DNA of 64,000 bases from an uncultured Chloroflexia bacterium (lineage in GTDB: Bacteria; Chloroflexota; Ktedonobacteria; Ktedonobacterales; Ktedonobacteraceae), in assembly GCA_963791835.1 (NCBI GenBank), contig CAWBTV010000007.1, positions 941,807 through 1,005,806 on the forward strand, given 5' to 3'. Of this stretch, positions 163-63,753 are shown piece after piece. Below the pieces are notes generated by a model. It was given only the letters and a program-made list of their open reading frames with translations, was not told the origin of the DNA and ran no database searches. How positions within the stretch are numbered: the stretch's first letter is position 1; each line of letters starts with the position of its first letter. Position numbers and translations under genes: made by a program.

Positions 163-205
163 AAAAGTCGCCAGACCTAATGTTTAAGGTCTGGCGACTC
201 GTTGC
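163..205 (-). terminator. Hairpin (11-bp stem) followed on the minus strand by TTTTTTGTGTTTTATT; lies in the leader of the LysE-like gene
   Basis: GTCGCCAGACC...GGTCTGGCGAC inverted repeat followed by a T-tract, read on the minus strand. Confidence 0.5.
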
Positions 206-447: not shown

Positions 448-1257
448 GTGGATCGCCGATTTTATCATACCAGCGAGTTCGCACAGAAAGCGTCTGTCTC
501 GGTACGCACGTTGCGCTACTACGACAAAGTGGGGTTGTTGTCGCCCTCGACCTATACAGAGAGTGGTTATCGGCTCTATACAGATACCGACCTGCTACGG
601 TTGCAACAAATCCTGGCCTTGAAATTTCTTGGTTTCTCGCTACAAGAGATTCAGCAATTTTTAGCGGCTGAACCACTGCTCCTACAAGAGTCGTTGGCGC
701 AACAGAAGGCCATGATGCAAGAGCGCAGAAGCCAGCTGGATACGGTTATCCAGGCTATAAGCGAGACAGAAGAGTTGTTACAGGCCAACAAACTTAACTG
801 GGAGTCTATTATACGGGTGATCCAGGTGATTCAAATGACACAAAATAACGAATGGCAAGACAAGTACTTCACGCCAGAACAACGCCAGCAGATGGAAGAC
901 TTGAGCAAGAAACATTATTCCGAAGAGCAACGACAACAGATAGCCGAGTGGGGTAAGAATTGGAGTGAGGAGGACCAACGCATTGTAAGCCAGAAATGGG
1001 ATGTCCTCTTTGCGGAGCTAAAGCGTCTCGTCTCAACTGGGCAGAACCCGGATGGGCCAGAGGCACAGGCACTCGTGTCACAATGGAAGGCTCTTGTAGG
1101 CGAGTTCACACACGGCGACTCAGGTATTCAACAAGGCTTGAACGGCATGTGGCAGGATGTTGGCAACACACCTGCCGAACAAAGGCCCTTCGCTATGCCA
1201 TATACACCGGAGGAGGGAGAATTTCTGCTCAAAGCGATGAAGATGCAGAACATCTAA
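448..1257 (+). CDS. MerR-family transcriptional regulator (N-terminal HTH, long C-terminal effector domain; possibly TipAS-like)
   Basis: HTH motif YHTSEFAQKASVSVRTLRYYDKVGLL. GTG at 448 with RBS AAAGGAGG. The ORF-track ORF 355..1257 is trimmed to the RBS-supported start. Confidence 0.75.
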   Translation: MDRRFYHTSEFAQKASVSVRTLRYYDKVGLLSPSTYTESGYRLYTDTDLLRLQQILALKFLGFSLQEIQQFLAAEPLLLQESLAQQKAMMQERRSQLDTVIQAISETEELLQANKLNWESIIRVIQVIQMTQNNEWQDKYFTPEQRQQMEDLSKKHYSEEQRQQIAEWGKNWSEEDQRIVSQKWDVLFAELKRLVSTGQNPDGPEAQALVSQWKALVGEFTHGDSGIQQGLNGMWQDVGNTPAEQRPFAMPYTPEEGEFLLKAMKMQNI

Positions 1258-1317
1258 AAAAGTGTCTACAGGAAATGCGTTGCATTTCCTGTAGACACTT
1301 TTTTAGATGTTCTGCAT
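1243..1317. repeat. 75-bp perfect palindrome (36-bp arms, 3-nt centre) spanning the stop codons and last 4 codons of two convergent genes; bidirectional terminator-like
   Basis: Left arm 1243-1278 is the exact reverse complement of right arm 1282-1317. The arms include ATGCAGAACATCTAA (MQNI*) of both flanking ORFs, with an A-tract and T-tract inside. Confidence 0.85.
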
Positions 1318-2992
1318 TACCAATTCTGCCACAATTTTGCCTGACAACATCACCAATGGCACACCACCACCGGGATGGGTGCTTCCTCCTACAAAGTAGA
1401 GATTACATATTTCGGATGTGTTGCCAGGGCGTGTGAAGGGTGCCATACGTGAGTTCGAGGAGAGGCCGTAGATTGAACCTGCATTCGCACCATATTTATC
1501 ATAGAAGTCCTGGGGGGTGAGCATAGTCTCACAGACAATATGCTCTCGCAGGTCGCTCAGGTCTACTTGTTTATAACTTGCGAGCAGGTCGAGAATACGC
1601 TCACGATATGCGGGTGCTTCGCGTTGCCAATCGCTTTTTGATGTGAGATAGGGCGCGTTGACCAGCACAAACAGGTTTTCGTGTCCTGGGGGTGCCTGTG
1701 TCGGGTCGCTACGCGTGGTAGCACAGACATAGATCGTTGGATTGTTCAAGGGTACATGGCGTTCAAACAGGTCGTCAAACTCGGCGTGATAGTCGTCGGA
1801 GAAAAAGATGTTGTGATGCGACAATTGCGGATACTGCTTATCGAGACCGAGCAGCAAGACAAAGCCAGAGCAGGACGGCTCTAGCTGTTCCAGGCGTTGC
1901 ACACGTCTTCTGTTGCGTATCGCTGGCGATAGCAGTTCGCGATGCGTTGTCACGACATCGCTATTGGCGATCACGATATCACTCCGTAGCACACGCCCGT
2001 CTGCCAGCACAACACCACGAGCAGTATTTCGCTCCACAAGAATACGCTGTACATTACAGCATGTCTCAATCGTGACATCCAATTCACGCGCAACTCGTTC
2101 TAATGCCTGTGCTACCGCATAGATACCACCACGCGGATACCAACCACCATCGGCAAGCTCAACATAGGGAATGATGCGATAGACTGAGGCAACTTGATAT
2201 GGTGAAGACCCGTTATAGGTTGCGTAACGATCAAACAACTGACGTAAGTGCTCATCCTCAAAAAAGTTGTGTACACTCTCATCTAAGGTCTGTGGTGAAA
2301 GGGCGGCAAGGACAGCTTTTAGACGCGAAAGGAGGGTGGAGGGGGGTATATTATTCGTAGGGACCAGATTTATCGCGTCCGTAGGCGATTTATCGCGCGA
2401 GATGCCTTCATGTTCATGTCGTTCTTTGTGTGATCTATAGGCGATAAATCGCCTACGGACGCGATAAATCTGGTCCCTACGACCATCTGGATGTCCTCGT
2501 AACACATAACGTACAAACGTCCTCAAAACATTCGAGCGGACTACCTAAGCTATGATAGAGAAACGGGTCTGCCGCAGCTTGAAAGATGTTATAAGCCGAA
2601 TCAAAGAAGTGCAAGAAGGTGGTGCCATCATGTAGATTGAGTTGTGCAAACTCCTGGGCTAGTCGCTCGTGGTCACGCCATGCATTGAGTATCAGGCCGT
2701 CATGATAAAAGTAACGGCATGTGATGTCGAGCGGAATCAGATCAAGATAGTCTTTGAGATTGCGTTGAGCCGATTGGAAGAGGTCTTCGAGGACGTAAGG
2801 CATGGTGATAAGTGATGGACCTGTATCGAAGCTAAAGCCGTCTATCTGGATAGAATTAAGTTTTCCGCCAACCTGTGCCTGTCGCTCTAAGATGGTGACA
2901 TGATGACCCTGTGCTGCTAAGCGAATGGCTGCTGAGAGACCACCAATACCCGCTCCTATGACGATAATGCTCTTATGTTTGGATGTAGACAC
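1303..2992 (-). pseudogene. CrtI/CrtD-family FAD-dependent carotenoid desaturase split into two ORFs by a 124-bp MITE (2357-2480)
   Basis: N-terminal fragment (2481-2992) has the Rossmann motif IIVIGAGIGGLSAAIRLA. The C-terminal fragment (1303-2356) has CrtI-like GGWYPRGG and a C-terminal GGSTHPGGG. The fragments are in different frames. Deleting exactly 2357-2480 restores one 521-aa ORF. Confidence 0.7.
2357..2480. mobile_element. MITE-like palindromic element, family A (GTAGGGACCnnTTTATCGCGTCC terminal inverted repeats), nested inner repeat
   Basis: Terminal inverted repeats gtagggaccagatttatcgcgtcc / ggacgcgataaatctggtccctac. The same termini recur at least 9 more times in the window. Confidence 0.75.
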
Positions 2993-3065: not shown

Positions 3066-3818
3066 ATGATACCTGCACACAAATTTCCGCTCGGCGAATA
3101 TCTCGTCGAGGGCTTGATAGATGGCTCGTTCCGCAAATATTTTGACCGCATCCATTATCGGCAATATGGGACATATACGGATGAGCAACGGGCGTTACCG
3201 ATGATTATCTGTGCCAATCATTCGACATGGTGGGATGGCTATGTGGCGTTACTGGTGGCGCGTCAACTTGGTGTTGATCCGTATTTGATGATGGAAGAAG
3301 CACAGTTGCGCCGCTATTTCTTTTTTCGCTGGATTGGCTGCTTTTCGGTAGACCGACAGAATGCACGCTCAGCTATGCAGTCTCTGCAATACGCAGCCCG
3401 TATGCTTAAAGAGAAACAAGGACGTATGGTTTGGCTCTTTCCGCAGGGCGAGATTTCACCAAATGATCGTCGTCCGTTTGAATTTTTTACGGGTGCGGCA
3501 CATCTCGCACGCCTGACCACGACGAGTCTTGTTTATCCGCTTGCGATACGCATCGAATATCTCGCCGAACAACGACCTGATCTTTTTATTAGCCTCGGCG
3601 AACCCTTATGCGTTGATGCAGAGATGGCGCATACTCCTGGTTTCCTCAAACATTGTACGCATCAGCTAGAGGGTATGGTGACAGCCGAACTCGACCAGTT
3701 ACGTAGTGACATTGTAGCAGGGGATTACTCGTCCTTCACGTTGTTGATGCGTGGCACATCTTCGACAAACAGGATATTCGACTCGCTCTTACTGCGGAAA
3801 CAGATTGGCAGGCAGTAG
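3066..3818 (+). CDS. Lysophospholipid/PlsC-family acyltransferase (CruD-like carotenoid-glycoside acyltransferase candidate)
   Basis: HX4D acyltransferase motif NHSTWWD. Strong RBS GGGTAGGGGG upstream. Context with the CrtD-like and GT2 genes. Confidence 0.7.
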   Translation: MIPAHKFPLGEYLVEGLIDGSFRKYFDRIHYRQYGTYTDEQRALPMIICANHSTWWDGYVALLVARQLGVDPYLMMEEAQLRRYFFFRWIGCFSVDRQNARSAMQSLQYAARMLKEKQGRMVWLFPQGEISPNDRRPFEFFTGAAHLARLTTTSLVYPLAIRIEYLAEQRPDLFISLGEPLCVDAEMAHTPGFLKHCTHQLEGMVTAELDQLRSDIVAGDYSSFTLLMRGTSSTNRIFDSLLLRKQIGRQ

Positions 3819-3820
3819 AG

Positions 3821-5143
3821 ATGATGAGATTGTTCATAGAAAATGCCTGTAGGGGTCTAATTCATCACACCCTGTTGGCAATGAACCATGCCGGAGAATA
3901 TGGAAAACGTTTAATCAATATCTCACAAGTTTGTTTATCGCCAATAGGGTGTAATGAATTAGACCCCTACAGATACGTTGCCGCACTCGTACTTTGTATT
4001 CTTATCATCCTATTCGCTATCCTCATCATCAACCTGTTCACGTTTTATCGTCTACGACCTCATATTGAGACACAAAACACAGAACAGCCGCTTGTCTCTG
4101 TCCTGGTGCCAGCACGGGATGAAGCGCAATCTATCGAGCGATGTGTGCGTTCGTTGGTAGCCCAAACATATGAGCGATTAGAGATACTTGTATTGGACGA
4201 TCATAGTAGTGATGCGACGGCAACAATTGTGCAGAGCATCATGGATGAATTGCCTGTACAGCAACAAGGAAGGGTACGACTGTTGCAAGGCGAGGAGTTG
4301 CCGTTGGGATGGGGTGGCAAAAACTTTGCATGTCATCAACTGGCACAACACGCGACAGGGAACTATTTGTTTTTTACGGATGCTGATACTGTTCACGACC
4401 CTAAGATGATTGCATCCGTAGTTGATTGTATGCAAATCCGTAAGGTTGCATTGCTCACAGCACAACCAACCTATGAACTTGATAGTATAGGAGAACGTCT
4501 TGTCGTACCGCTCCTCACCTTTACCATTATGACGCTGCTTCCTGTGGCCCTTATTCCTGTGCGACCGGAGCCAAGTCTTGCTACGGGTAATGGACAACTG
4601 TTGTGTTTTGAACGTTCCGCATACGAACATATTGGTGGACATTCGTCGGTGAAGAATCGCATTTTGGAAGATGTGTTACTGGCACGTGCGGTCAAGGCGG
4701 CAGGCTTGCGTATGATTTTTGTGGATGCACAAGACCTTGTGCGTTGTCGCATGTATCGCTCGTTCGCGGAGGTCTGGTCGGGCTTCTCGAAAAACCTGTT
4801 CGCGTTTTATAACTATGCGTTACCCTTCGCGCTTATCGGACTTGTGCTAAATATCCTACTTTTTATTGTGCCAGCATTGCTCATTTTATCAGCCCTATTT
4901 ATACCATTCTCGTTTCCGACATTGCTTTTGGCGACAGGTGCCTATGCGCTTCCTGTCGTGATGCGCATGTTATTAACGCTGCGCTTTACACAGACGCAAC
5001 GAGGGTTGATGCTTTTGCTGTGTCTGCTGCATCCCGTTTCGATTGCGCTTGAATGCCTGATTTTGCTCAATTCGATACGCTGGCATTATCGTAAAGAGGG
5101 AACGGTGTGGAAGGGTCGGCAATATGTGACTTATCAGAAATGA
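3821..5143 (+). CDS. Family-2 glycosyltransferase with C-terminal multi-TM domain (CruC-like); true start uncertain because a MITE occupies the 5' end
   Basis: GT2 motifs VLVPARDE...LVLDDHSSD...FTDADT. Residues about 9-50 of the ORF are encoded by MITE D1, which contains an in-frame ATG at 3881. Confidence 0.7.
   Translation: MMRLFIENACRGLIHHTLLAMNHAGEYGKRLINISQVCLSPIGCNELDPYRYVAALVLCILIILFAILIINLFTFYRLRPHIETQNTEQPLVSVLVPARDEAQSIERCVRSLVAQTYERLEILVLDDHSSDATATIVQSIMDELPVQQQGRVRLLQGEELPLGWGGKNFACHQLAQHATGNYLFFTDADTVHDPKMIASVVDCMQIRKVALLTAQPTYELDSIGERLVVPLLTFTIMTLLPVALIPVRPEPSLATGNGQLLCFERSAYEHIGGHSSVKNRILEDVLLARAVKAAGLRMIFVDAQDLVRCRMYRSFAEVWSGFSKNLFAFYNYALPFALIGLVLNILLFIVPALLILSALFIPFSFPTLLLATGAYALPVVMRMLLTLRFTQTQRGLMLLLCLLHPVSIALECLILLNSIRWHYRKEGTVWKGRQYVTYQK
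3848..3969. mobile_element. MITE-like element, family D (GTAGGGGTCTAATTC terminal inverted repeats)
   Basis: gtaggggtctaattcat...atgaattagacccctac. Related copies at 15983-16130 and a remnant at 10963-10997. Confidence 0.7.
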
Positions 5144-11112: not shown

Positions 11113-11182
11113 TAGGGACCGAGTTATCGCGTCCTTATAACACATGCAAGAACAGACAAGGACGCGATAAATCGGTCCCTAC
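11113..11182. mobile_element. MITE-like element, family A
   Basis: tagggaccgagttatcgcgtcc...ggacgcgataaatcggtccctac. Confidence 0.7.
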
Positions 11183-12361: not shown

Positions 12362-12420
12362 TGCCAAAAAGCTATTGACTCAGCGTACATGTTGTACGCT
12401 GAGTCAATAGCTTTTTGGCA
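12362..12420. terminator. 59-bp perfect palindrome (28-bp arms) downstream of the PLP-enzyme gene
   Basis: tgccaaaaagctattgactcagcgtaca-tgt-tgtacgctgagtcaatagctttttggca. Confidence 0.7.
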
Positions 12421-15982: not shown

Positions 15983-16130
15983 AATACGAAACGTCCGTAG
16001 GGGTCTAATTCTATTACACCCTTGTGGCAATGAACAATCTTGGAAGAGAATGAGAATTGTTACAACATCCTCCCAAATTGTATATTGTTTACAGGGTGCA
16101 ATAGAATTAGACCCCTACGGACGTTTCGTA
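15983..16130. mobile_element. MITE-like element, family D with extended terminal repeats (ATACGAAACGTCCGTAGGGGTCTAATTC)
   Basis: Outer 28-nt terminal repeats are perfect reverse complements. The internal sequence is related to D1. Confidence 0.75.
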
Positions 16131-16137
16131 TCCTAAT

Positions 16138-18681: not shown

Positions 18682-18746
18682 TGGTCGATGTATCGCGTCC
18701 TTGTTGGCAGTCGATTGCTCAAAAGGACGCGATACATCGGTCCCTA
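18682..18746. mobile_element. MITE-like element, family A (degenerate left terminus)
   Basis: ...ggtcgatgtatcgcgtcc...ggacgcgatacatcggtccctaa. Confidence 0.55.
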
Positions 18747-18781
18747 ATGAATATTGACAACCAAAAACGGGAATTCTTCTC

Positions 18782-18909
18782 GGTAGGGGCAGCAATTCAT
18801 TGCGCCCAATGATGGGGGCGGCGAGGCAACGTGTCGGCAACGATTCACGCTCCCAACGCGAACCCCTCTCGCCCCCATCATTGGGCGCAATGAATTGCTG
18901 CCCCTACCG
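18782..18909. mobile_element. MITE-like element, family B (GGTAGGGGCAGCAATTCATTGCGCCCAATGATGGGGG terminal repeats)
   Basis: 36-nt terminal inverted repeats. The core cgtgtcggcaacg is shared with the family A interior. Further copies at 60254-60383 and a chimera at 46829-46949. Confidence 0.75.
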
Positions 18910-24055: not shown

Positions 24056-25231
24056 ATGCCACCATTTTCATTTACAATTGACGCCGAATGTCCTGATACA
24101 TGGGCGCGTGCTGGCACCATTCAGACACCACACGGCACGATTTCGACGCCTATCTTTATGCCCGTAGGCACACAGGCAACGGTGAAGAGTGTCGCACCTG
24201 AAGAACTTCATGCAGCCGGGGCGCAAATTATTCTCTCCAATACCTATCACTTAATGCTCCGTCCAGGCTCCGAATTGGTCGCTGATTTTGGTGGTCTCCA
24301 TTCGTTTATGCATTGGGATGGTCCAATTCTGACTGATAGCGGCGGCTTCCAGGTATGGAGTCTGGGCCATTTACGTAAGTTGAGTGAAGATGGCGTGACG
24401 TTTAAATCGCATCTCGATGGTTCAGCCCATACGCTTACACCCGAACGTGTAATGCAGATTGAGGCAGAGCTGGGCGCGGACATCATACTTCCGCTCGACA
24501 TCTGTGCTCCCTACCCATGCGCACCCTTAGAGGCACAGGCCGCGATGGAACGAACGCATCGCTGGGAGGAACGTGCGCTACTTGCCAAAGAACGCTATAA
24601 TCCAGCACAGGCCCTGTTTGGGATTGTACAGGGAGCATTTGAACCTGAGTTACGGAGACAGAGCGCGGAAATCATCGGCAATATGCCTTTTCCGGGTCTC
24701 TCTATTGGTGGGCTTTCTGTTGGAGAACCGAAAGCGATGATGTGGGATATGCTCAATGTCGTCACACCTGCACTACCTCGTAACAAGCCACGTCACCTGC
24801 TCGGTGTTGGTTCACCAGAAGACCTTGTGATAGGTGTCGGGCTAGGTATGGACATGTTTGATTGCGTTCTGCCCACACGCGTTGCCCGACACGGGGGACT
24901 CTTCACGCGTCAGGGTCGTGTTAGTATCAAGGGGGCACGTTTTCGAGCCGAACACAATCCCGTCGAGGTCGGCTGCGATTGCTACACGTGTCGTAACTAT
25001 AGCGCGGCCTACGTCCATCATCTAGCACGTACCGAAGAGCAACTCTATTATCGTCTCGGCAGCATTCACAATATTCGTTTTATGTTGCGTCTCGCGAGTG
25101 AACTACGTGCAGCCATTCTTGCCGGAACCTATACAGCGTTTCGTGATGAGTTCTTAGCAACCTACATGCCCGCATCCGAACAGGTACGCGAGGCGCAACG
25201 CGAAAAATGGAAGATAGCGCGTGGCAGGTAG
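24056..25231 (+). CDS. tgt: Queuine tRNA-ribosyltransferase
   Basis: TPHGTISTPIFMPVGT...LTDSGGFQ...CDCYTCRNYSAAYVHHL (zinc site). The stop TAG lies inside the terminus of MITE A4. Confidence 0.9.
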   Translation: MPPFSFTIDAECPDTWARAGTIQTPHGTISTPIFMPVGTQATVKSVAPEELHAAGAQIILSNTYHLMLRPGSELVADFGGLHSFMHWDGPILTDSGGFQVWSLGHLRKLSEDGVTFKSHLDGSAHTLTPERVMQIEAELGADIILPLDICAPYPCAPLEAQAAMERTHRWEERALLAKERYNPAQALFGIVQGAFEPELRRQSAEIIGNMPFPGLSIGGLSVGEPKAMMWDMLNVVTPALPRNKPRHLLGVGSPEDLVIGVGLGMDMFDCVLPTRVARHGGLFTRQGRVSIKGARFRAEHNPVEVGCDCYTCRNYSAAYVHHLARTEEQLYYRLGSIHNIRFMLRLASELRAAILAGTYTAFRDEFLATYMPASEQVREAQREKWKIARGR

Positions 25232-25330
25232 GGACCGATTTATCACGTCCTGGGGGTGGGGTGGGGCAGCGTGTCGGCGACGATGTGTTTGCCCCACCCC
25301 ACCCCCAGGACGTGATAAATCGGTCCCTAC
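25228..25330. mobile_element. MITE-like element, family A (inner G-rich palindrome); its GTAGGG terminus supplies the tgt stop codon
   Basis: gtagggaccgatttatcacgtcc...ggacgtgataaatcggtccctac. Confidence 0.75.
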
Positions 25331-27791: not shown

Positions 27792-27792
27792 C

Positions 27793-27857
27793 AAAAGAGC
27801 AGAGAGTGTACATTATGTCCTGATTCTCAGGACATAATGTACACTCTCTGCTCTTTT
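27793..27857. terminator. 65-bp perfect palindrome (31-bp arms) one nt after the stop codon
   Basis: aaaagagcagagagtgtacattatgtcctga-ttc-tcaggacataatgtacactctctgctctttt. Confidence 0.7.
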
Positions 27858-28009
27858 GGAAAATTATACTTGACTTATTTGGAGAGGGTCTCTATAATCA
27901 AAATAGAGACCAAAAAAGATATGGTCAAGAAAGCACACGGACTTATAAAAATGCTCAGCTACAAACAACCAGTACAACAGAATAGCTTTTATTATTGGTT
28001 TAGCCCCCC

Positions 28010-29215: not shown

Positions 29216-29241
29216 ACAGGCACGTAAAGCGAGTTCACTAA

Positions 29242-29341
29242 CATGACAGGGGCAAGCCCAGTCACTACTATACACGGAACCGCCTGGCTTCGCCCCACAG
29301 GGGCGAACAGTATAGTAGTGACTGGGCTTGCCCCTGTCATG
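29242..29341. mobile_element. MITE-like element, family C (CATGACAGGGGCAAGCCCAGTCACTACTATAC terminal repeats)
   Basis: 32-nt terminal inverted repeats. Further copies at 50119-50205 and 54480-54578. Confidence 0.75.
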
Positions 29342-29482
29342 TTGGCAACATCGGCTTCAACAGCTTTTACATGTCGATTTTCTCTCGACTCATCTTAAAC
29401 AGTATGATATACTCTGTGTACGTAGAGAGGGATTGTTTGTAATACTTGGTCGGGATAGACCAAAGGCTTTGAGGTGAACACG

Positions 29483-30136: not shown

Positions 30137-30207
30137 TGTAGGGACCGATTTATCGCGTCCTCTTGCGATATCAATTATCGGTGAGGACGCGATAAATCGG
30201 TCCCATT
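30137..30207. mobile_element. MITE-like element, family A
   Basis: gtagggaccgatttatcgcgtcc...ggacgcgataaatcggtccc. Confidence 0.7.
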
Positions 30208-31217: not shown

Positions 31218-32783
31218 ATGCCTTTAGACAGGAAAGACTCAGGCTCTACCTGGCAAGCTCCTCCAACATATAAGAACACTGAGTTTCAGCCAGACGCGCC
31301 CTGGGAACCAGACGACGATGAAATGGATATTCCATCAATTCAGCAGGAACAGGAAATTCCAACGGTTCCAACAGCTATCAATAGCATTCATATTGGAGCA
31401 AACGACCCGGTTGAAAACGAAAGTGAAGAAGCAGTGACCACTGGACGCACTGCACTCATGAGCCAGATTGGTCGTTATTCCTCATTCATCTTGGCCCCAC
31501 TGCTCTTTGCGGGGCTTACCAGTCTGATTGTGTTGCCAACAGTCGCTATTGGTCGTGCCAATTTACCACCGTCAACACTTTTCCCCCTTGCAATTATTAT
31601 CCTGGCGATTGCCCTTGCTCAGGGTGTCGCAACGTATTATACTGATACCACAAGCGGTTTATGGGCTATTTATACTGTTGCAGGCTTTTTCCTTTTTATG
31701 CTTGTCGGCTGTTTCGCGCTCTTTGGTGCCGTTCCGGGTATCATTCTCCTACTCATCCTTGTCGTTCTCTCTATTTTTCTCGCACGACGCTACATTCATC
31801 CAGTGGCAGAGGAATATGTGGATATTGTGCGCTCATTTGGAAAATACAAGCGCACACTCTACCCAGGCTTCAATATCCTGTTGCCGTGGGAGCAAATTTC
31901 GCATCATCTGAGTACGGCTGAAACAATTTGGAAAACGCCTATACAGCGTGTGCAGATGACACGTGACGAGGATGTTGTATTGCGTGGCAGTATGAGCTAC
32001 CAACTATTGCCAGAAGATGCGTATCTTGTGACAGGTGTAAAAAACTGGGAAGAGAGTTTACAAGACATTTTCGTCGCATCACTACAATTAGTTGCGAAGA
32101 CCTTTACACCCGAAGATTTCATTGCATGGCCTCAGGGGATGTATACTCGTCCTACACACGGAAGCGCGATGCCCCTTTCTGAGGGTGAAACTCGCTGGGA
32201 ACAGGTCAATGGGCAAGTCTTGCAGCGAGTGCGAGACCGTGCCGCACTTTGGGGTGTGCAGATTAACGAGGTTCGCCTCTATGATATTGCTCTTGCTCCA
32301 CATGGGCATGGATTACAAGATGAAATAACAGAGCCAATCGCACCAAAAAAGGGAGGAGCGGCGATTCCTCAACAGGCAGCGCCTGCGTTTCAGCCAGTTC
32401 CTCATCCTCAGCCAGTAGCGGTACAGCCACCACAACCCAAGCAGCCTACACCACCACAGCAAGCGGTAGCGAATGTCCAGGTTCCAAAGGGGCTAAAAGA
32501 AGAGACGTTACGTAAAGCATACACCGAAGTAAAGAATGGGAATATCAAAGAACCGGAAACCATTCGCAACCTTGCGGCCCAATTTGAAGCCGTTGCCAAT
32601 AATCCAGAACTGAATAACGCGTTTACCTTTGATGCAAGAAGAGCGGCGATTAACTTGTATGCGGAGGCAGATAGACGACAGGAAGAGGAAGAAGCCAATG
32701 CTGGTACGCTCTTCACGGATGAAACAAAAGTTGATTGGCCCAGACGCCGTGCGACCGATGAAAATATCATGAGTGGGGGGTAG
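31218..32783 (+). CDS. SPFH/band-7 domain membrane protein with Pro/Gln-rich C-terminal region
   Basis: N-terminal TM helices. SPFH-like VRDRAALWGVQINEVRLYDI. Start set at ATG 31218, downstream of the preceding gene's stop. Confidence 0.6.
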   Translation: MPLDRKDSGSTWQAPPTYKNTEFQPDAPWEPDDDEMDIPSIQQEQEIPTVPTAINSIHIGANDPVENESEEAVTTGRTALMSQIGRYSSFILAPLLFAGLTSLIVLPTVAIGRANLPPSTLFPLAIIILAIALAQGVATYYTDTTSGLWAIYTVAGFFLFMLVGCFALFGAVPGIILLLILVVLSIFLARRYIHPVAEEYVDIVRSFGKYKRTLYPGFNILLPWEQISHHLSTAETIWKTPIQRVQMTRDEDVVLRGSMSYQLLPEDAYLVTGVKNWEESLQDIFVASLQLVAKTFTPEDFIAWPQGMYTRPTHGSAMPLSEGETRWEQVNGQVLQRVRDRAALWGVQINEVRLYDIALAPHGHGLQDEITEPIAPKKGGAAIPQQAAPAFQPVPHPQPVAVQPPQPKQPTPPQQAVANVQVPKGLKEETLRKAYTEVKNGNIKEPETIRNLAAQFEAVANNPELNNAFTFDARRAAINLYAEADRRQEEEEANAGTLFTDETKVDWPRRRATDENIMSGG

Positions 32784-32846
32784 CTATCGACGCAATAAAA
32801 TACGCGTGTGCTTTGGCACACGCGTATTTTATTGCGTCGATAGCTA
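32781..32846. terminator. 66-bp perfect palindrome (31-bp arms) running exactly from the TAG stop of the + gene to the CTA (TAG) stop of the convergent - gene
   Basis: tagctatcgacgcaataaaatacgcgtgtgc-tttg-gcacacgcgtattttattgcgtcgatagcta. Confidence 0.8.
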
Positions 32847-33365
32847 CTTTTTCACAAGTGTCGAAGCAACCTTTTCGGCGTTCCCTTCGTCCATCGTGCG
32901 GAGAGCGGCAACGGCTTCATTCGAGATAACTTTGCTTACTTCGGGATCAAACACCACGTCGTCACGCTTGCAATAGCGAAGTTTGTTCCAGGCAGCCGTA
33001 GCACGATCCCAGGCAGGGAAACGCTCTGTTGCCTCGGCATCACCCTTGACGACCCGTTGGAAAGCGTTGTAGGAAACAACAAGCGCGGTCACAATACTGA
33101 TGAATGTTAAAGCGACAAGCACAATCATCCAGAATGGATTCAGGCTTGCTTCCAACCCTCCAATCAGCACAATGATAAGAAAGATGCAAATACCTACGAG
33201 GACGCCACACGCGATGATATATGGCATCATTGATATGTTTCTTGTTGGCATATCTGGTGGCGCAGCACGCGACACACCTGATTCATATGCGGCCTGCATC
33301 GTCATGACCATATCATTTTGATGACATACAGGACAGGTTGGTTTTTCTGCTTCAGTCGTTGCCAT
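32844..33365 (-). CDS. Hypothetical membrane protein with N-terminal CxxC zinc-ribbon-like motif
   Basis: CPVCHQ motif. Two TM helices. No known family recognised. Confidence 0.5.
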   Translation of the reverse strand: MATTEAEKPTCPVCHQNDMVMTMQAAYESGVSRAAPPDMPTRNISMMPYIIACGVLVGICIFLIIVLIGGLEASLNPFWMIVLVALTFISIVTALVVSYNAFQRVVKGDAEATERFPAWDRATAAWNKLRYCKRDDVVFDPEVSKVISNEAVAALRTMDEGNAEKVASTLVKK

Positions 33366-43561: not shown

Positions 43562-44494
43562 ATGGACAGAGGAATGATGCAAAATTTTTCAGCACACATC
43601 GTCATTTCGGACGAAGTACAAACCGCGCTACACGAGCAGAGGCCAGTAGTCGCACTTGAGTCTACCGTCATCGCACATGGGCTGCCCTATCCTGATAATG
43701 TCACGGTGGCACAGGCGATGGAGGCAACTATTCGGCGTGAAGACGCAGTACCAGCCACGATTGGTATTTTCAATGGGAAGATTGTCGTTGGACTGGCACA
43801 GGATGAAATTCTACAGCTTGGTACCGCTCCTGTTGTGCAAAAAGTCAGTCGCCGTGACCTTGCTGTCACGCTGGCAACACGCCAACTGGGGGCCACAACG
43901 GTTGCGGGAACGATGCTTTGTGCAAGTATGGTTGATATTCGCTTTTTCGCGACGGGTGGTATTGGTGGGGTTCATCGTGGAGCCGAGACGAGCATGGATA
44001 TCTCAGCCGACCTGATCGAGTTGAGCCAGACGCCTGTACTGGTGGCCTGTGCTGGCGCGAAGTCCATTCTCGACCTCGACCTGACGCTTGAATATTTAGA
44101 GACGCATGGTGTACCCGTTGTGGGCTGGCAGACCGATGAATTGCCCGCCTTTTATGTGCGTCATAGTGGACGCCGCCTGACGCATCGCGTTGATGATGTA
44201 GCTGTAATAGCCGATATCGCACGGACGCAATGGGAACTTGGTCTGCATGGTATTGTTGTAGGCTGTCCCATCCCTGAACAGTATGCAATGGACGCCGTAC
44301 CCTTAGAGCGTGCAACAGAAGAGGCATTGCAACTCGCAAAACAACAGGGTATACAGGGATCCGCAACGACGCCATTTCTGCTCTCACATGTCGCGAAGGT
44401 GACTGCTGGCGAAAGCGTTGAAGCTAACAAAGCCTTGTTGCTCAATAATGCTATGTGGACGGCACGTTTTGCTAACGCGTATTACAACATGTAG
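43562..44494 (+). CDS. psuG: Pseudouridine-5'-phosphate glycosidase
   Basis: Indigoidine_A/PsuG family motifs (VVALESTVIAHGLPYP, ATGGIGGVHRGAE, VLVACAGAKSILD). The stop TAG lies inside the terminus of MITE A7. Confidence 0.85.
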   Translation: MDRGMMQNFSAHIVISDEVQTALHEQRPVVALESTVIAHGLPYPDNVTVAQAMEATIRREDAVPATIGIFNGKIVVGLAQDEILQLGTAPVVQKVSRRDLAVTLATRQLGATTVAGTMLCASMVDIRFFATGGIGGVHRGAETSMDISADLIELSQTPVLVACAGAKSILDLDLTLEYLETHGVPVVGWQTDELPAFYVRHSGRRLTHRVDDVAVIADIARTQWELGLHGIVVGCPIPEQYAMDAVPLERATEEALQLAKQQGIQGSATTPFLLSHVAKVTAGESVEANKALLLNNAMWTARFANAYYNM

Positions 44495-44566
44495 GGACCG
44501 ATGTATCACGTCCTTTCCTTGTCAGCATGTCAATCGCCAAAGAGGACGTGATACATCGGTCCCTAC
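44491..44566. mobile_element. MITE-like element, family A; supplies the psuG stop codon
   Basis: gtagggaccgatgtatcacgtcc...ggacgtgatacatcggtccctac. Confidence 0.7.
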
Positions 44567-44762: not shown

Positions 44763-45152
44763 GTGAATAATCCACTAGAAATACGCAAGGTCATTGGCGG
44801 CGTTCTTCTTACGCTTATCTATGTCTGCTGCTTCTTATTTATCAAATCTTCGTTGGTGATAGACTGGGTGGGAGATGGTAGCGTCACCACAAGCCTCATT
44901 CTATTGGTGGCGGTTATTGGCCTTCTTGTCTTGGTCTTCTATCACATTCTCTATCGGTCCAGTCCAGAAACAACAAAATTAAGCCTGACAGCATCACTGA
45001 CACTCTTGTGGCTCGCGCTGATCATTTTTTATCCATTCCAGCCTCTACAGGCAGGTCAGAATGATGGCTCGGTTGGTTTCTTCGCCCTCATCGGCGGTCT
45101 TGCTGTCTGTGTTCTCTGGGTTCGCTTCTTCTCAGACGAGATTATTGCATAA
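44763..45152 (+). CDS. Hypothetical small membrane protein
   Basis: Four TM helices. GTG start with GAAAGGAG RBS. Confidence 0.5.
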   Translation: MNNPLEIRKVIGGVLLTLIYVCCFLFIKSSLVIDWVGDGSVTTSLILLVAVIGLLVLVFYHILYRSSPETTKLSLTASLTLLWLALIIFYPFQPLQAGQNDGSVGFFALIGGLAVCVLWVRFFSDEIIA

Positions 45153-45214
45153 AAGAATAGAACAACAAAGATGCCAACCGCTCGCGGTTGGCATCTTTGT
45201 TGTTCTATTCTTTT
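45151..45214. terminator. 64-bp perfect palindrome (30-bp arms) bridging the TAA stop of the + gene and the TTA (TAA) stop of purH
   Basis: aaaagaatagaacaacaaagatgccaaccg-ctcg-cggttggcatctttgttgttctattctttt. Confidence 0.8.
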
Positions 45215-46769
45215 AATGTCTAAAGTGTCTTTGGCCTGTAAAGATCATCGCGATGGCGTAATGGTTCGCCATACGAATCGTCTCTTCGTCACGAACGGAA
45301 CCTCCGGGCTGAATGATCGCCGTTACACCTGCTTTCGCAGCAGTTTCGACGCCATCAGCAAAGGGAAAGAATGCGTCGGAGGCAAGGACTGCTCCACGAG
45401 CGCGATTAGAGGCTTTCTCAACGGCAATCTGTACGCTGGTGACACGGTTCATTTGCCCCGCTCCCACACCGACAAGTGATAGCTTATGTGCAAGTACAAT
45501 AGCATTTGACTTAACATGGCGCACGGCCTTCCATGCAAACATCAAGTCCGTCACCTCGTCCAATGTTGGTTCGCGCTCACTCACAACATTGTAGGCGGTG
45601 TCACGATCTCCAACTGCGTCAGGCGTTTGGAGTAAGAGACCGCCGCTTACAGAGCGTACATCAAGTTTCCCTGCACCTATTCCCATAGGCTCAACAGGAC
45701 GATGTGTGGCAAGCAAACGGATATTTTTCTTTTTACGAAGTATCTCAAGCGCATCTGCGGTAAACTCTGGTGCAATCACAGCCTCGTAGAATAGTTGGTT
45801 TATCTCTTGCGCAGTTGCCGCATCTATTGGACGATTGCTGCCAATAATGCCACCATAGGCTGAAATGGGATCACCAGCGTGTGCCTTCTTATACGCCTCT
45901 ACAAGCGACTCATCACACGATAGACCACATGGATTGGTATGCTTGATAATGGCAATGGTCGGCGCGGTAAAACTTTGCGCGGCTGCCAATGCACCATCCA
46001 GATCAAGCAGATTGTTAAATGATAACTCCTTGCCGTGCAAGACTTCGGCGTCGGCAACCGTCGCAGTGGTTGCATCGTTGCCTCGTGTACCCGACCAGCG
46101 ATAGAAGGCTGCTTGCTGATGAGGATTTTCACCGTAGCGCAGTGTTTGCGCACGTTCGAGCGGTAGTGTCACAGTCTGTGGGAAGGTTTCAGTTGTAGAG
46201 GAACGCAGATATTCAGCGATAGTCGTGTCATAGCTGGCAGTTTGCTGAAGGGCGATAGCGGCAAGATGACGACGTGTTGCAAGACTTACCTCACCCTGTT
46301 CACGCCACTCCTGCATAACCGCAGGATAGTCTTCTGGACGTGTCAGGATTAGCACATCTTGAAAGTTTTTCGCGGCTGCACGAGTGAGTGTCACGCCACC
46401 GATGTCTATCTTCTCCAATGCCTCCATCAACGTCACATTTGATTGCGCGATGGTTTTCGCAAATGGATAGAGGTTTGAGACCACAATATCAATTGGGACC
46501 ATATTGTGTATGCGCAACTCCTCTTCGTGTGAAGGGAGGTTTCGACGGGCAAGAATGCCACCCAGAATGGCAGGGTGTAATGTCTTGACACGCCCATCAA
46601 GTATTTCAGGGAAATTTGTCAAGACACTTACCGACTCAGCTTCAATGCCACCAGCGTGTAGTGCTTTTAAGGTTCCACCCGTTGCAAAAATAGTTACGTC
46701 ATGACTTCTTAGTTCTTGCGCTAACTCAAGAAGGCCATTGCGATTGTCAACGCTCATCAATGCTCGCAT
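45213..46769 (-). CDS. purH: Bifunctional AICAR transformylase / IMP cyclohydrolase
   Basis: MGS-like N-terminal domain (RALMSVDNRNGLLELAQELRSHDVTIFATGGT) and AICARFT domain. Confidence 0.9.
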   Translation of the reverse strand: MRALMSVDNRNGLLELAQELRSHDVTIFATGGTLKALHAGGIEAESVSVLTNFPEILDGRVKTLHPAILGGILARRNLPSHEEELRIHNMVPIDIVVSNLYPFAKTIAQSNVTLMEALEKIDIGGVTLTRAAAKNFQDVLILTRPEDYPAVMQEWREQGEVSLATRRHLAAIALQQTASYDTTIAEYLRSSTTETFPQTVTLPLERAQTLRYGENPHQQAAFYRWSGTRGNDATTATVADAEVLHGKELSFNNLLDLDGALAAAQSFTAPTIAIIKHTNPCGLSCDESLVEAYKKAHAGDPISAYGGIIGSNRPIDAATAQEINQLFYEAVIAPEFTADALEILRKKKNIRLLATHRPVEPMGIGAGKLDVRSVSGGLLLQTPDAVGDRDTAYNVVSEREPTLDEVTDLMFAWKAVRHVKSNAIVLAHKLSLVGVGAGQMNRVTSVQIAVEKASNRARGAVLASDAFFPFADGVETAAKAGVTAIIQPGGSVRDEETIRMANHYAIAMIFTGQRHFRH

Positions 46770-46828: not shown

Positions 46829-46949
46829 TAGGGACCGATGTATCGCGTCCAAAGATGGGCAGGGAGGGGTCCGCATTGAAGCGAGAAATCGTTGCCGACA
46901 CGTTGCCTTTCCACCCCATCTTTGGGCGCAATGAATTGCTGCCCCTACC
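46829..46949. mobile_element. Chimeric MITE: family A left terminus joined to family B right terminus
   Basis: gtagggaccgatgtatcgcgtcc...cgttgccgacacg...tgggcgcaatgaattgctgcccctacc. Confidence 0.7.
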
Positions 46950-48925: not shown

Positions 48926-49000
48926 AAAAGAGAAGAGAAAAGGGTGGGGGCAATGCATGAGAATCTCATGCATTGCCCCCACCCTTTTCTCTTCTCTTTT
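48926..49000. terminator. 75-bp perfect palindrome (36-bp arms) between two convergent stop codons
   Basis: aaaagagaagagaaaagggtgggggcaatgcatgag-aat-ctcatgcattgcccccacccttttctcttctctttt. Confidence 0.8.
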
Positions 49001-50092: not shown

Positions 50093-50118
50093 GTGTAGCA
50101 CTAATTTAAAAGCGGCGG

Positions 50119-50205
50119 CATGACAGGGGCAAGCCCAGTCACTACTATACAACGCTCTGCCACGCGACCCATTGTATAGTAGTGACTGGGCTTGCCCCTG
50201 TCATG
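50119..50205. mobile_element. MITE-like element, family C
   Basis: catgacaggggcaagcccagtcactactatac...gtatagtagtgactgggcttgcccctgtcatg. Confidence 0.75.
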
Positions 50206-50241
50206 CCGAATATACTTCAATGACCTTTAAATCATCCTATA

Positions 50242-52673: not shown

Positions 52674-52684
52674 GCCCTTTTATG

Positions 52685-52749
52685 AAGATAAGAAAATAAT
52701 CGAACAGGAGACCGCAAGGGTCTCCTGTTCGATTATTTTCTTATCTTCT
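52685..52749. repeat. Family E single hairpin (CAGGAGACCGCAAGGGTCTCCTG) embedded in a 65-bp palindrome between convergent genes; terminator-like
   Basis: gaagataagaaaataatcgaacaggagaccgcaagggtctcctgttcgattattttcttatcttc. Confidence 0.7.
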
Positions 52750-54454: not shown

Positions 54455-54479
54455 ATTATTATATGAGAGGCAAAAGAGG

Positions 54480-54578
54480 CATGACAGGGGCAAGCCCTGT
54501 CACTACTATACACGGGTGACGCATGGCAGAGCCACGCTGTGAGGTCAGTATAGTAGTGACAGGGCTTGCCCCTGTCGT
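54480..54578. mobile_element. MITE-like element, family C
   Basis: catgacaggggcaagccctgtcactactatac...gtatagtagtgacagggcttgcccctgtcgtg. Confidence 0.75.
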
Positions 54579-54732
54579 GCTGATAATCAAACAAATGTAC
54601 GCGTTAGTTAGAGTCAATGACATGAATTTCATTCCCTGGAAATTCTCGTGTTGACAACAGAAGAACAAAGTAGGTATACTACGATAGTTGGCTAGCCAAT
54701 TAAAAATAAGTTACAATCCAGGAGAACAAACG

Positions 54733-60234: not shown

Positions 60235-60253
60235 CAGGGAACACATGCACATC

Positions 60254-60383
60254 GGTAGGGGCAGCAATTCATTGCGCCCAATGATGGGTTGGGAGGGGTT
60301 CGTGTCGGGTGAAGGAATTGTCGCTGATAGATTGCCCTTCCGCCGCCCCCATCTTTGGGCACAATGAATTGTTGCCCCTACCG
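60254..60383. mobile_element. MITE-like element, family B
   Basis: ggtaggggcagcaattcattgcgcccaatgatggg...cccatctttgggcacaatgaattgttgcccctacc. Confidence 0.75.
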
Positions 60384-61717: not shown

Positions 61718-61739
61718 GCGTTTTTATCAACAAAATGTC

Positions 61740-61807
61740 GTAGGGACCACGTTTACGGCGTCCATAGGCAATTAATTGCCTATGGACGCCGTAAACGTGG
61801 TCCCTAT
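61740..61807. mobile_element. MITE-like element, family A variant (GTAGGGACCACGTTTACGGCGTCC termini)
   Basis: Perfect 68-bp palindrome-like element with the same GTAGGGACC...GGTCCCTA ends. Confidence 0.65.
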
Positions 61808-61813
61808 GACATT

Positions 61814-63687: not shown

Positions 63688-63753
63688 AGCCAATGAGTGT
63701 AAGTAGGCACCCATTTGAGAACTCAAATGGGTGCCTACTTACACTCATTGGCT
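63688..63753. terminator. 66-bp perfect palindrome (32-bp arms) between the permease stop and the glucosidase start
   Basis: agccaatgagtgtaagtaggcacccatttgag-aa-ctcaaatgggtgcctacttacactcattggct. Confidence 0.75.

Follow-up and report, generated by a model that had tools for sequence, protein, structure and literature searches.

This study concerns a 64,000-nucleotide stretch of contig CAWBTV010000007.1 from an uncultured bacterium of the Ktedonobacteraceae (hereafter, the window), a family to which protein searches also assigned it, and more precisely a perfect 75-bp palindrome on which two convergent genes meet near its beginning: a gene for a MerR-family regulator with a C-terminal TipAS domain on the plus strand, and a CrtD-like gene of the phytoene-desaturase family on the minus strand (Table 1). 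The palindrome spans and overruns the entire gap between them. An inverted-repeat search of the window delimited two arms of 36 nt (1243-1278 and 1282-1317), 100% complementary, around a GTT loop (1279-1281), against a longest perfect arm of 12 nt in 20 shuffles of the window, which confirmed the 36+3+36 structure of an original prediction made from the sequence alone. The stop codons of MerR (1255-1257) and of the CrtD-like gene (1303-1305) both lie within the arms, and ATGCAGAACATCTAA, present in each arm, comprises 12 coding nucleotides and the stop codon of each gene. The plus-strand open reading frame (ORF) indeed ends in KAMKMQNI (EGEFLLKAMKMQNI, then stop) and the minus-strand ORF in AELVMQNI (GKIVAELVMQNI, then stop), as had been predicted. 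Matching at 36 of 36 arm positions, including these coding nucleotides, exceeds what chance and function would account for. The predicted gene identities were confirmed by Pfam, with MerR_1 and TipAS at residues 6-74 and 154-265 of the 269 residues of the plus-strand protein, and Amino_oxidase / NAD_binding_8 (flavin amine-oxidase/phytoene-desaturase family) in the minus-strand protein, where the match reaches residue 403 of 407. The shared MQNI residues therefore fall outside both domain models.

The centre of the palindrome consists of a stem, GTGTCTACAGGAAATGC / GCATTTCCTGTAGACAC, closed by the GTT loop, which measures 17 bp rather than the 18 bp initially announced and includes 8 G-C pairs. 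It is flanked by an A6 tract (1256-1261) and a T6 tract (1299-1304), so that both strands read a stem followed by a U-tract. The full palindrome folds as RNA at -63 kcal/mol on one strand and -62 kcal/mol on the other (z about -13), and folding of the 49-nt segment from A6 to T6 (1256-1304) gave -33.5 kcal/mol on the plus strand and -32.1 kcal/mol on the minus strand (z about -11.7). A stable stem-loop on each strand, a U-tract in both directions, and the stops of two convergent genes at or just before the hairpin are the features expected of a bidirectional intrinsic terminator. A-rich codons (K, N, Q, E, T, I) make up both protein tails in all relatives, which would fit a double duty of these tails as the U-tract of the opposite strand. 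No Rfam family matched anywhere in the 64-kb window.

The same junction was compared in related genomes, using MerR-anchored loci (labelled L001 and so on; 1.32 Mb including the window). The convergent arrangement of the CrtD-like and MerR genes is conserved, with synteny intact on both sides, and a long palindrome lies in this gap in about 15 related genomes (L001, L002, L005-L009, L083/84, L086, L088, L095, L124, L113-115 and L164-L166). The stem sequence differs in each genome and most of these palindromes are perfect, with one or two mismatches in L005, L007 and L124; the stem tips are recognisably homologous (CCAGAAAAC[AG]C in several relatives versus CAGGAAATGC in the window). In L003, where the CrtD-like end is truncated, the junction palindrome has 8 mismatches, and in L019 a MITE (a miniature transposable element with inverted repeats) occupies the junction instead. 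In every intact junction, the CrtD-like stop and last codons are inside an arm. Both genes end in K in L006 (AAATAA mirrored) and in Q in L008 and L009 (CAATAA mirrored), and in L086, where AATAAG is mirrored, the last codon and stop are common to both genes. The presence of a long palindrome at the same junction in these relatives indicates that the terminator-like palindrome is older than the divergence of their genomes. The original prediction held that an inverted copy of one gene end had rewritten a C-terminus and created the terminator in one event. The inverted copy stands, as detailed below, but the creation of the terminator does not: a palindrome with A/T tracts and the CrtD-like stop was already at the junction in about 15 relatives, and the change specific to the window merely pushed the symmetric zone further into MerR.

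The size of the junction palindrome varies as well. That of L164 (3558-3591) retains the outer part (TAACAAGAGGAC) of the one in L002 (4686-4754) but has neither its loop nor about 12 bp per arm at its centre; the palindrome of L164 also reaches further outward into the CrtD-like coding end than that of L002. This looks like a central deletion combined with growth at the edges.

The direction of the inverted copy was deduced from the gene ends. The CrtD-like orthologs have tails such as AELVMQKKT, ISQNT, VMQEN, VMQQN, VMQDR and VTQDR, commonly of the form [VI][MST]Q[NDEK]x, and those of the nearest kin end in LITQNI-stop (L165; CAA AAC ATA TAA) and ITQSI-stop (L166). From these tails, Q-N-I-stop is native to the CrtD-like gene. 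The MerR orthologs have 268 residues and end in KAMK followed by VEK, AQK, VQK, VQQ or, in L165, VQN, while the MerR protein of the window, one residue longer than every ortholog, is the sole 269-residue member of its 90% cluster. In comparison with L165 and L166, the CrtD-like side aligns without gap and the MerR side is shorter by about 6 nt in the window. The MerR gene of the window ends in atg cag aac atc TAA AAAAG; the same side in L165 reads gtt caa aac TAA AAC ATA TAA AAAG, with the mirrored CrtD-like tail in frame directly after the MerR stop, and L164 is arranged likewise, 14 coding nucleotides being mirrored in the 3' untranslated region of MerR. Judged from these gene ends, the CrtD-like gene is the donor and MerR the recipient of the inverted copy, and the ortholog alignment that the original prediction had proposed thus designates MerR as the changed side. 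MerR as the donor was rejected, as an MQN ending is absent from all 120 MerR homologs listed. Among the orthologs compared, no case was found in which both genes end in MQNI and no palindrome is present. Two routes may have led to the present state: either a single template switch returning further out, or the slippage loss of one AAAACT unit (a deletion between direct repeats in an L165-like ancestor) and then further homogenisation of the arms. Since the second route gives the same result, the single event initially proposed is not required.

Nor does the palindrome stand alone. When the 64 kb were scanned for perfect palindromes, allowing loops of up to 8 nt, eight of unique sequence were found, this one included; their arms measure 28-37 nt and their loops 1-5 nt, and all of them lie at gene 3' ends. 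Placed on an approximate gene map, they are found at 5 of 11 convergent, 2 of 38 tandem and none of 10 divergent junctions. The convergent ones take up nearly the full gap of 45-90 nt, and each of the eight has an inner stem richer in G+C and then a T-rich tail, of which an A-rich tract on the opposite side is the exact mirror image.

The relatives were scanned with a mismatch-tolerant procedure, which handles imperfect centres and larger loops. As for perfect palindromes, those of unique sequence with arms of 16 nt or more number 73 in the 1.32 Mb, the mode of arm length being 26-35 nt. The class extends to Dictyobacter and to two cultured isolates, Ktedonobacter racemifer and K. robiniae, and no such palindrome was found in three outgroup loci (Rubrobacter, Chloroflexaceae and Trueperaceae; about 52 kb in total). 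Among those with arms of at least 24 nt (n = 49), 43 lie at ORF 3' ends (about 20% for random positions) and 19 between convergent ORFs (1.8% for random positions). Sharing of terminal codons recurs in gene pairs unrelated to this one: in L005 (2679-2753; 35-nt arms), both convergent ORFs end in LQ, with 11 nt of each within the arms, and in L014 (3234-3303) two membrane proteins both end in K. By motif reading, one product of the L005 pair resembles a histidine kinase and the other a PAP2-type membrane protein. The coding overlap at the MerR/CrtD-like junction (15 nt on each side) is the largest seen. This class would be one of unusually long, exactly symmetric bidirectional terminators, lineage-wide and encroaching on coding ends, whose symmetry is maintained by a process (arm copying) that is already known; no prior account of it in Ktedonobacteria was found in the searchable literature.

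The arms of these palindromes evolve in concert. Between L001 and L002, 9 of 33 arm positions differ and all 9 changes are mirrored, for a distance of 0.39 at four-fold degenerate sites of MerR; between L008 and L009, 4 of 28 differ, again all mirrored, for a four-fold-site distance of 0.26. The arms thus change at about 55-70% of the rate of four-fold sites, which are putatively neutral. They nevertheless remain paired: all the sequence analysed contains 103 hairpins whose paired span reaches 24 nt or more, of which 92 are perfect, while a single mismatch occurs in 8 and two mismatches in 3, which makes about 0.45% of mismatched pairs. In 14 orthologous palindrome pairs, most changes are mirrored (32 substitutions and 3 indels) and 13 are not, as expected for homogenisation by template switching. 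Three of these 14 pairs compare the K. racemifer and K. robiniae isolates and include one mirrored 1-nt indel.

Loop inversions, observed in four to five orthologous pairs of the class, point in the same direction. The loop is the only difference, within identical flanks, in L041/L145 (GAA versus TTC) and L114/L115 (C versus G). It reads CTCGT versus ACGAG in L095/L124, which have nearly identical flanks and also differ by three arm changes; GCA versus TGC in the more diverged L067/L069; and TTC versus GAA, with one extra change, in L022/L143. These flips were scored on members of the class, the relatives being too diverged for scoring at 1243-1317 itself. In the window, the MerR side of the palindrome is the reverse complement of the CrtD-like side, as copying of one arm from the other would produce. 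Fast divergence, few mismatches, mirrored indels and flipped loops, taken together, argue for reverse-complement copying between the arms. Template switching, an established mechanism that perfects and conserves inverted repeats (PMC5941160, PMC8794818), appears to fit these patterns better than ordinary compensatory selection and is the best-supported mechanism, as was initially suggested. From the 0.45% of mismatched pairs, conversion may be roughly estimated to proceed at several hundred times the per-site mutation rate.

From a mechanistic point of view, we thus consider it likely that the palindrome is a long-standing bidirectional intrinsic terminator of the MerR/TipAS and CrtD-like genes, whose arms copy each other and from which the CrtD-like tail was copied onto MerR. 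The 17-bp stem, with the A6/T6 tract serving as U-tract in both directions, would be common to both convergent genes, and Ktedonobacteraceae would keep such terminators as near-perfect palindromes of 55-80 bp. The arms would act repeatedly as mutual templates, through template switching of the type described by Ripley, whether in replication or in repair synthesis; a change arising in one arm would be either erased or transferred to the other, and the loop would often be inverted during copying. The return switch may sometimes take place outside the old stem, which would lengthen the palindrome into its flanks. At this junction, the symmetric zone would already have held the CrtD-like stop and last two to four codons, with their mirror image just past the MerR stop. 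In the lineage of the window, the MerR side would then have been overwritten, or about 6 nt including the MerR stop lost, and MerR would have come to read through an exact inverted CrtD-like tail, ending in MQNI. This tail change was probably tolerated rather than selected, since neither tail falls within a Pfam domain and both differ from one ortholog to another.

Several observations weigh against this scenario or temper it. The mirrored-change counts come from few loci and include some pairs of shared ancestry, and 13 of the 48 changes (about a quarter), most of them beside the loop or at the outer margin, are unmirrored, which shows that homogenisation is not instantaneous. A nearer relative preserving the pre-event state was sought, but the nearest relatives are still at four-fold distances of about 0.38-0.45, and the available relatives as a whole at 0.38-0.52; at such distances, one event and several are indistinguishable and the steps cannot be dated, so that the pre-event state is a reconstruction by analogy with relatives. 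A strong selection for full-length pairing, serving for instance a factor that binds double-stranded RNA or DNA, could also add to the perfection of the arms. As for termination itself, which we infer from anatomy and placement, a consensus terminator scan listed neither the hairpin at 1243-1317 nor the palindrome at 12362. The hairpin was most likely missed because pairing, and with it the stem rule of the scan, runs on through the A/T tracts; the scan is uninformative for this class of long palindromes.

Other processes may be considered. Arms could be homogenised by recombination or repair, whether short-tract gene conversion, correction of mismatches once a hairpin or cruciform has been extruded, or fill-in primed by a hairpin at a break. 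Exchange between inverted repeats, reciprocal or not, would equally give mirrored changes and inverted loops, and replication and repair synthesis are inseparable in these data; a preference for template switching in replication over other templated repair is thus what we infer. Arms of 25-37 nt are, however, near or below the usual minimum length for RecA-dependent exchange. Mismatch correction within a hairpin cannot spread identity to unpaired flanks, while the symmetric zone varies among relatives and reaches 15 nt into both genes, and mirrored indels suit copying better than base-by-base repair. On balance, we regard such homogenisation by recombination or repair as unlikely, although it is the most credible of the alternatives. 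Compensatory evolution, which would maintain a stable RNA terminator hairpin and leave the shared MQNI as a by-product of selection for A-/T-rich tracts, agrees with the placement of the elements where terminators are expected, and with the A-rich codons of both tails, as expected if these tails also served as the U-tract of the opposite strand. Selection purging mismatches down to the observed level would nonetheless slow the divergence of the arms far more than is seen. Neither the 15-nt coding identity, the mirrored non-T bases of the tails, the mirrored indels nor the inverted loops are needed for termination, and point compensation yields none of them. Selection at the RNA level would moreover accept G-U pairs, and there are none in 92 of the 103 long hairpins. 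The types of mismatch do not separate RNA from DNA constraint, since transitions give G-T under either model. Compensation as the main cause accordingly seems improbable, and clearly more so than recombination or repair.

Two further explanations can be given very little credit. Insertion of a mobile palindromic element (MITE, REP or RPE-like) that brought both stops with it might be evoked in a window rich in MITE-like inverted-repeat families, one such element being in frame in the CrtD-like gene of a relative and another at the junction in L019. Yet no other copy of the arm, with up to 3 mismatches, was found in the 64-kb window or in the first 162 related loci, and reading of the flanks revealed no target-site duplication or flanking direct repeat. 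Homology links the outer arm to the coding end native to the CrtD-like orthologs, and the stem tip to that of relatives, and orthologous sites, far from being empty, hold homologous palindromes. With an arm that is unique and homologous to native sequence of the orthologs, the mobile element was rejected. The other explanation, an artefact of assembly or polishing at a palindromic site, finds some support in a short-read contig, L163 (ERZ22827476 NODE_9684), which ends at the start of the palindrome, and in a possible indel error nearby (about 2532). It is opposed by the recurrence of this architecture at the junction in about 15 assemblies, made independently in different projects, and by the presence of the class in two isolate genomes, as well as by synteny intact on both sides, an asymmetric loop, and a public 1.59-Mb contig on which the identical 269-residue MerR and CrtD-like fragment are on record. 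The assembly collapse envisaged in the original prediction is thus hardly credible.

Table 1. Positions of the genes, palindromes and other repeats discussed in the text, counted from the first nucleotide of the window.
Feature	Position	Strand	Remarks
One-directional terminator-like hairpin	165-200	-	11-14 bp stem, 8-10-nt loop, T6 on minus strand only
MerR-family regulator with TipAS C-terminal domain	448-1257	+	269 aa, GTG start at 448
MerR last four codons and stop	1243-1257	+	Inside left arm; recipient of inverted copy, judged from gene ends
Perfect palindrome, 75 bp	1243-1317	none	Covers entire MerR/CrtD-like gap
Core hairpin	1262-1298	none	17-bp stem around GTT loop
CrtD-like last four codons and stop	1317-1303	-	Inside right arm; donor of copied tail, judged from gene ends
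CrtD-like gene (phytoene-desaturase family), C-terminal part	1303-2526	-	
CrtD-like gene, N-terminal part	2477-2992	-	
GTAGGGACC...GGTCCCTAC inverted-repeat element	2355-2482		42-nt perfect arms; inside CrtD-like coding sequence, adjoins frameshift
28+3+28 perfect palindrome	12362-12420		11 nt past stop of plus-strand ORF; tandem junction
32+3+32 perfect palindrome	27792-27858		Directly 3' of TAA stop; tandem junction
32+4+32 palindrome	32780-32847		Convergent; both TAG stops within arms (4/4 nt overlap)
32+2+32 palindrome	45150-45215		Convergent; the two TAA stops form the outer 3-nt ends of the arms
37+1+37 palindrome	48926-49000		Convergent; 21-bp G+C-rich stem and mirrored 16-nt T/C-rich tail
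30+5+30 palindrome	52684-52748		Convergent junction
32+2+32 palindrome	63688-63753		About 15 nt downstream of stop of minus-strand ORF, which runs off window end (...LTAGAVKG, then stop)
GTAGGGACCGAT(T/G)TATC(G/A)CGTCC-type inverted-repeat element	11113-11181, 18686-18739, 25228-25330, 30141-30204		Mostly intergenic
GTAGGGACCGAT(T/G)TATC(G/A)CGTCC-type element, further copies	44491-44566, 46831-46943, 61734-61813		Mostly intergenic
Second inverted-repeat family, C[GT]GTAGGGGCAGCAATTCATTGCGCCC...	3847-3972, 18781-18909, 60253-60383		
Third inverted-repeat family, CATGACAGGGGCAAGCCC[AT]GTCACTACTATAC...	29240-29343, 50116-50208, 54479-54580		Intergenic gaps
Longest inverted repeat in window	15984-16131		64-nt arms, 83% complementary, 20-nt spacer; convergent junction

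The CrtD-like gene itself is split in the window (2992-2477 and 2526-1303) by a private +1 frameshift near 2532, giving pieces of 171 and 400/407 residues; the extra base reads CGAATG in the window against CG-ATG in L001, L002, L165 and L166. As this base is private to the window, it reflects either a recent pseudogenisation or an assembly indel. The copy of L165 is also split, in a different way, and the length of the orthologs is about 512-587 residues. The GTAGGGACC-type element that adjoins the frameshift is also found, in frame, within the intact 564-residue ortholog of L002 (about 3500-3640), while at the same site a different element (GTAGGGGC...AATT family) is present in L165 and L166, and another insert in L001. 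This site looks like a hot spot for in-frame MITE insertion, possibly in a surface loop.

The MITE-like inverted-repeat families of the window are separate from the eight unique palindromes. The element at the MerR/CrtD-like junction in L019 is of the GTAGGGACCGAT type, and a sequence related to the third family is present downstream of MerR in L012. The second-family copy at 3847-3972 lies in the 5' part of a glycosyltransferase-like ORF (3821-5143), the true start of which is therefore probably downstream. The one-directional hairpin at 165-200 follows the gene upstream of MerR, indicating that not every terminator here is a long perfect palindrome.

More broadly, this junction would offer a large and readable footprint of template switching, a process for which small clusters of mutations are the usual evidence. 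The C-terminal tetrapeptide common to two unrelated proteins stems from the presumed terminator that their genes have in common. According to the comparative data, long terminator stems can keep all their pairs while changing at a sizeable part of the neutral rate, which bears on the old question of the origin of compensatory changes in stems. In practical terms, annotators and aligners should expect inverted copying at gene 3' ends and in C-terminal tails of Ktedonobacteria, and short-read assemblers can break at such palindromes. The L163 contig, which carries a 93%-identical MerR, stops at its position 2524, 9 nt past the stop codon and at the start of the palindrome, which suggests such a break.

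A more speculative extension, which we put forward tentatively and hold to be rather doubtful, is that Ktedonobacteraceae undergo an unusually active cycle of 3'-end palindromes, in which flipping and homogenisation would be much faster than point mutation, as a mutational regime specific to the lineage. Palindromes would grow outward by copying the end of one gene across, and shrink by central deletion, as between L164 and L002. If so, terminator stems would be continually rebuilt from gene-end sequence, and the C-terminal tails of unrelated neighbours repeatedly rewritten to match each other. Exonucleases or hairpin nucleases would perhaps be missing or altered, and these bacteria would constitute a natural system for measuring template-switch rates.

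These palindromes can be set beside several known systems. Bidirectional intrinsic terminators between convergent genes are known from transcript-end mapping in E. coli and B. subtilis, with typical stems of 5-14 bp and roughly symmetric flanks. The element described here resembles them by its single hairpin, its flanking A- and T-tracts and the short convergent gap, and differs by an exact symmetry over 55-80 bp, including the stops and up to four sense codons per gene. Minute inversions of hairpin loops in chloroplast non-coding DNA were reportedly described by Kelchner and Wendel in 1996; there, as here, loops flip often and repeatedly while stems remain intact, but in an organelle, and they are not known to be tied to terminators overlapping coding ends.

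The closest parallel as to process is the correction of quasipalindromes (Ripley, 1982; Lovett and colleagues in E. coli; PMC5941160), in which an imperfect repeat is perfected by copying one arm from the other. Perfect inverted repeats of Proteobacteria likewise persist at orthologous sites while their sequence changes, and identity can extend past the old arms (PMC5941160). In the 4.6 Mb of E. coli MG1655, however, every perfect inverted repeat has arms shorter than 20 bp (PMC5941160), whereas arms of 25-40 bp are routine here, concentrated at gene 3' ends and running into coding sequence, as read from sequence alone. Compared with this E. coli limit, the high density of eight palindromes per 64 kb, all with arms of 28 bp or more, suggests a difference in replication or repair. 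Template switching also explains how long stems stay paired in RNA hairpins, a single event giving both multi-base compensatory changes and perfect stems (PMC8794818); those stems belong to structured RNA genes and involve a few base pairs, while the terminator palindromes described here have at least 30 pairs over two coding ends. Finally, coding palindromes of Nematomorpha mitochondria are perfect repeats with concerted arms and paired, even non-synonymous, substitutions, for which template switching was also proposed (PMC6649704). There, a repeat is confined to a single gene, may be as long as 284 bp and encodes conserved residues, whereas in Ktedonobacteraceae the arms belong to two convergent genes and cover only unconstrained C-terminal tails and the terminator between them.

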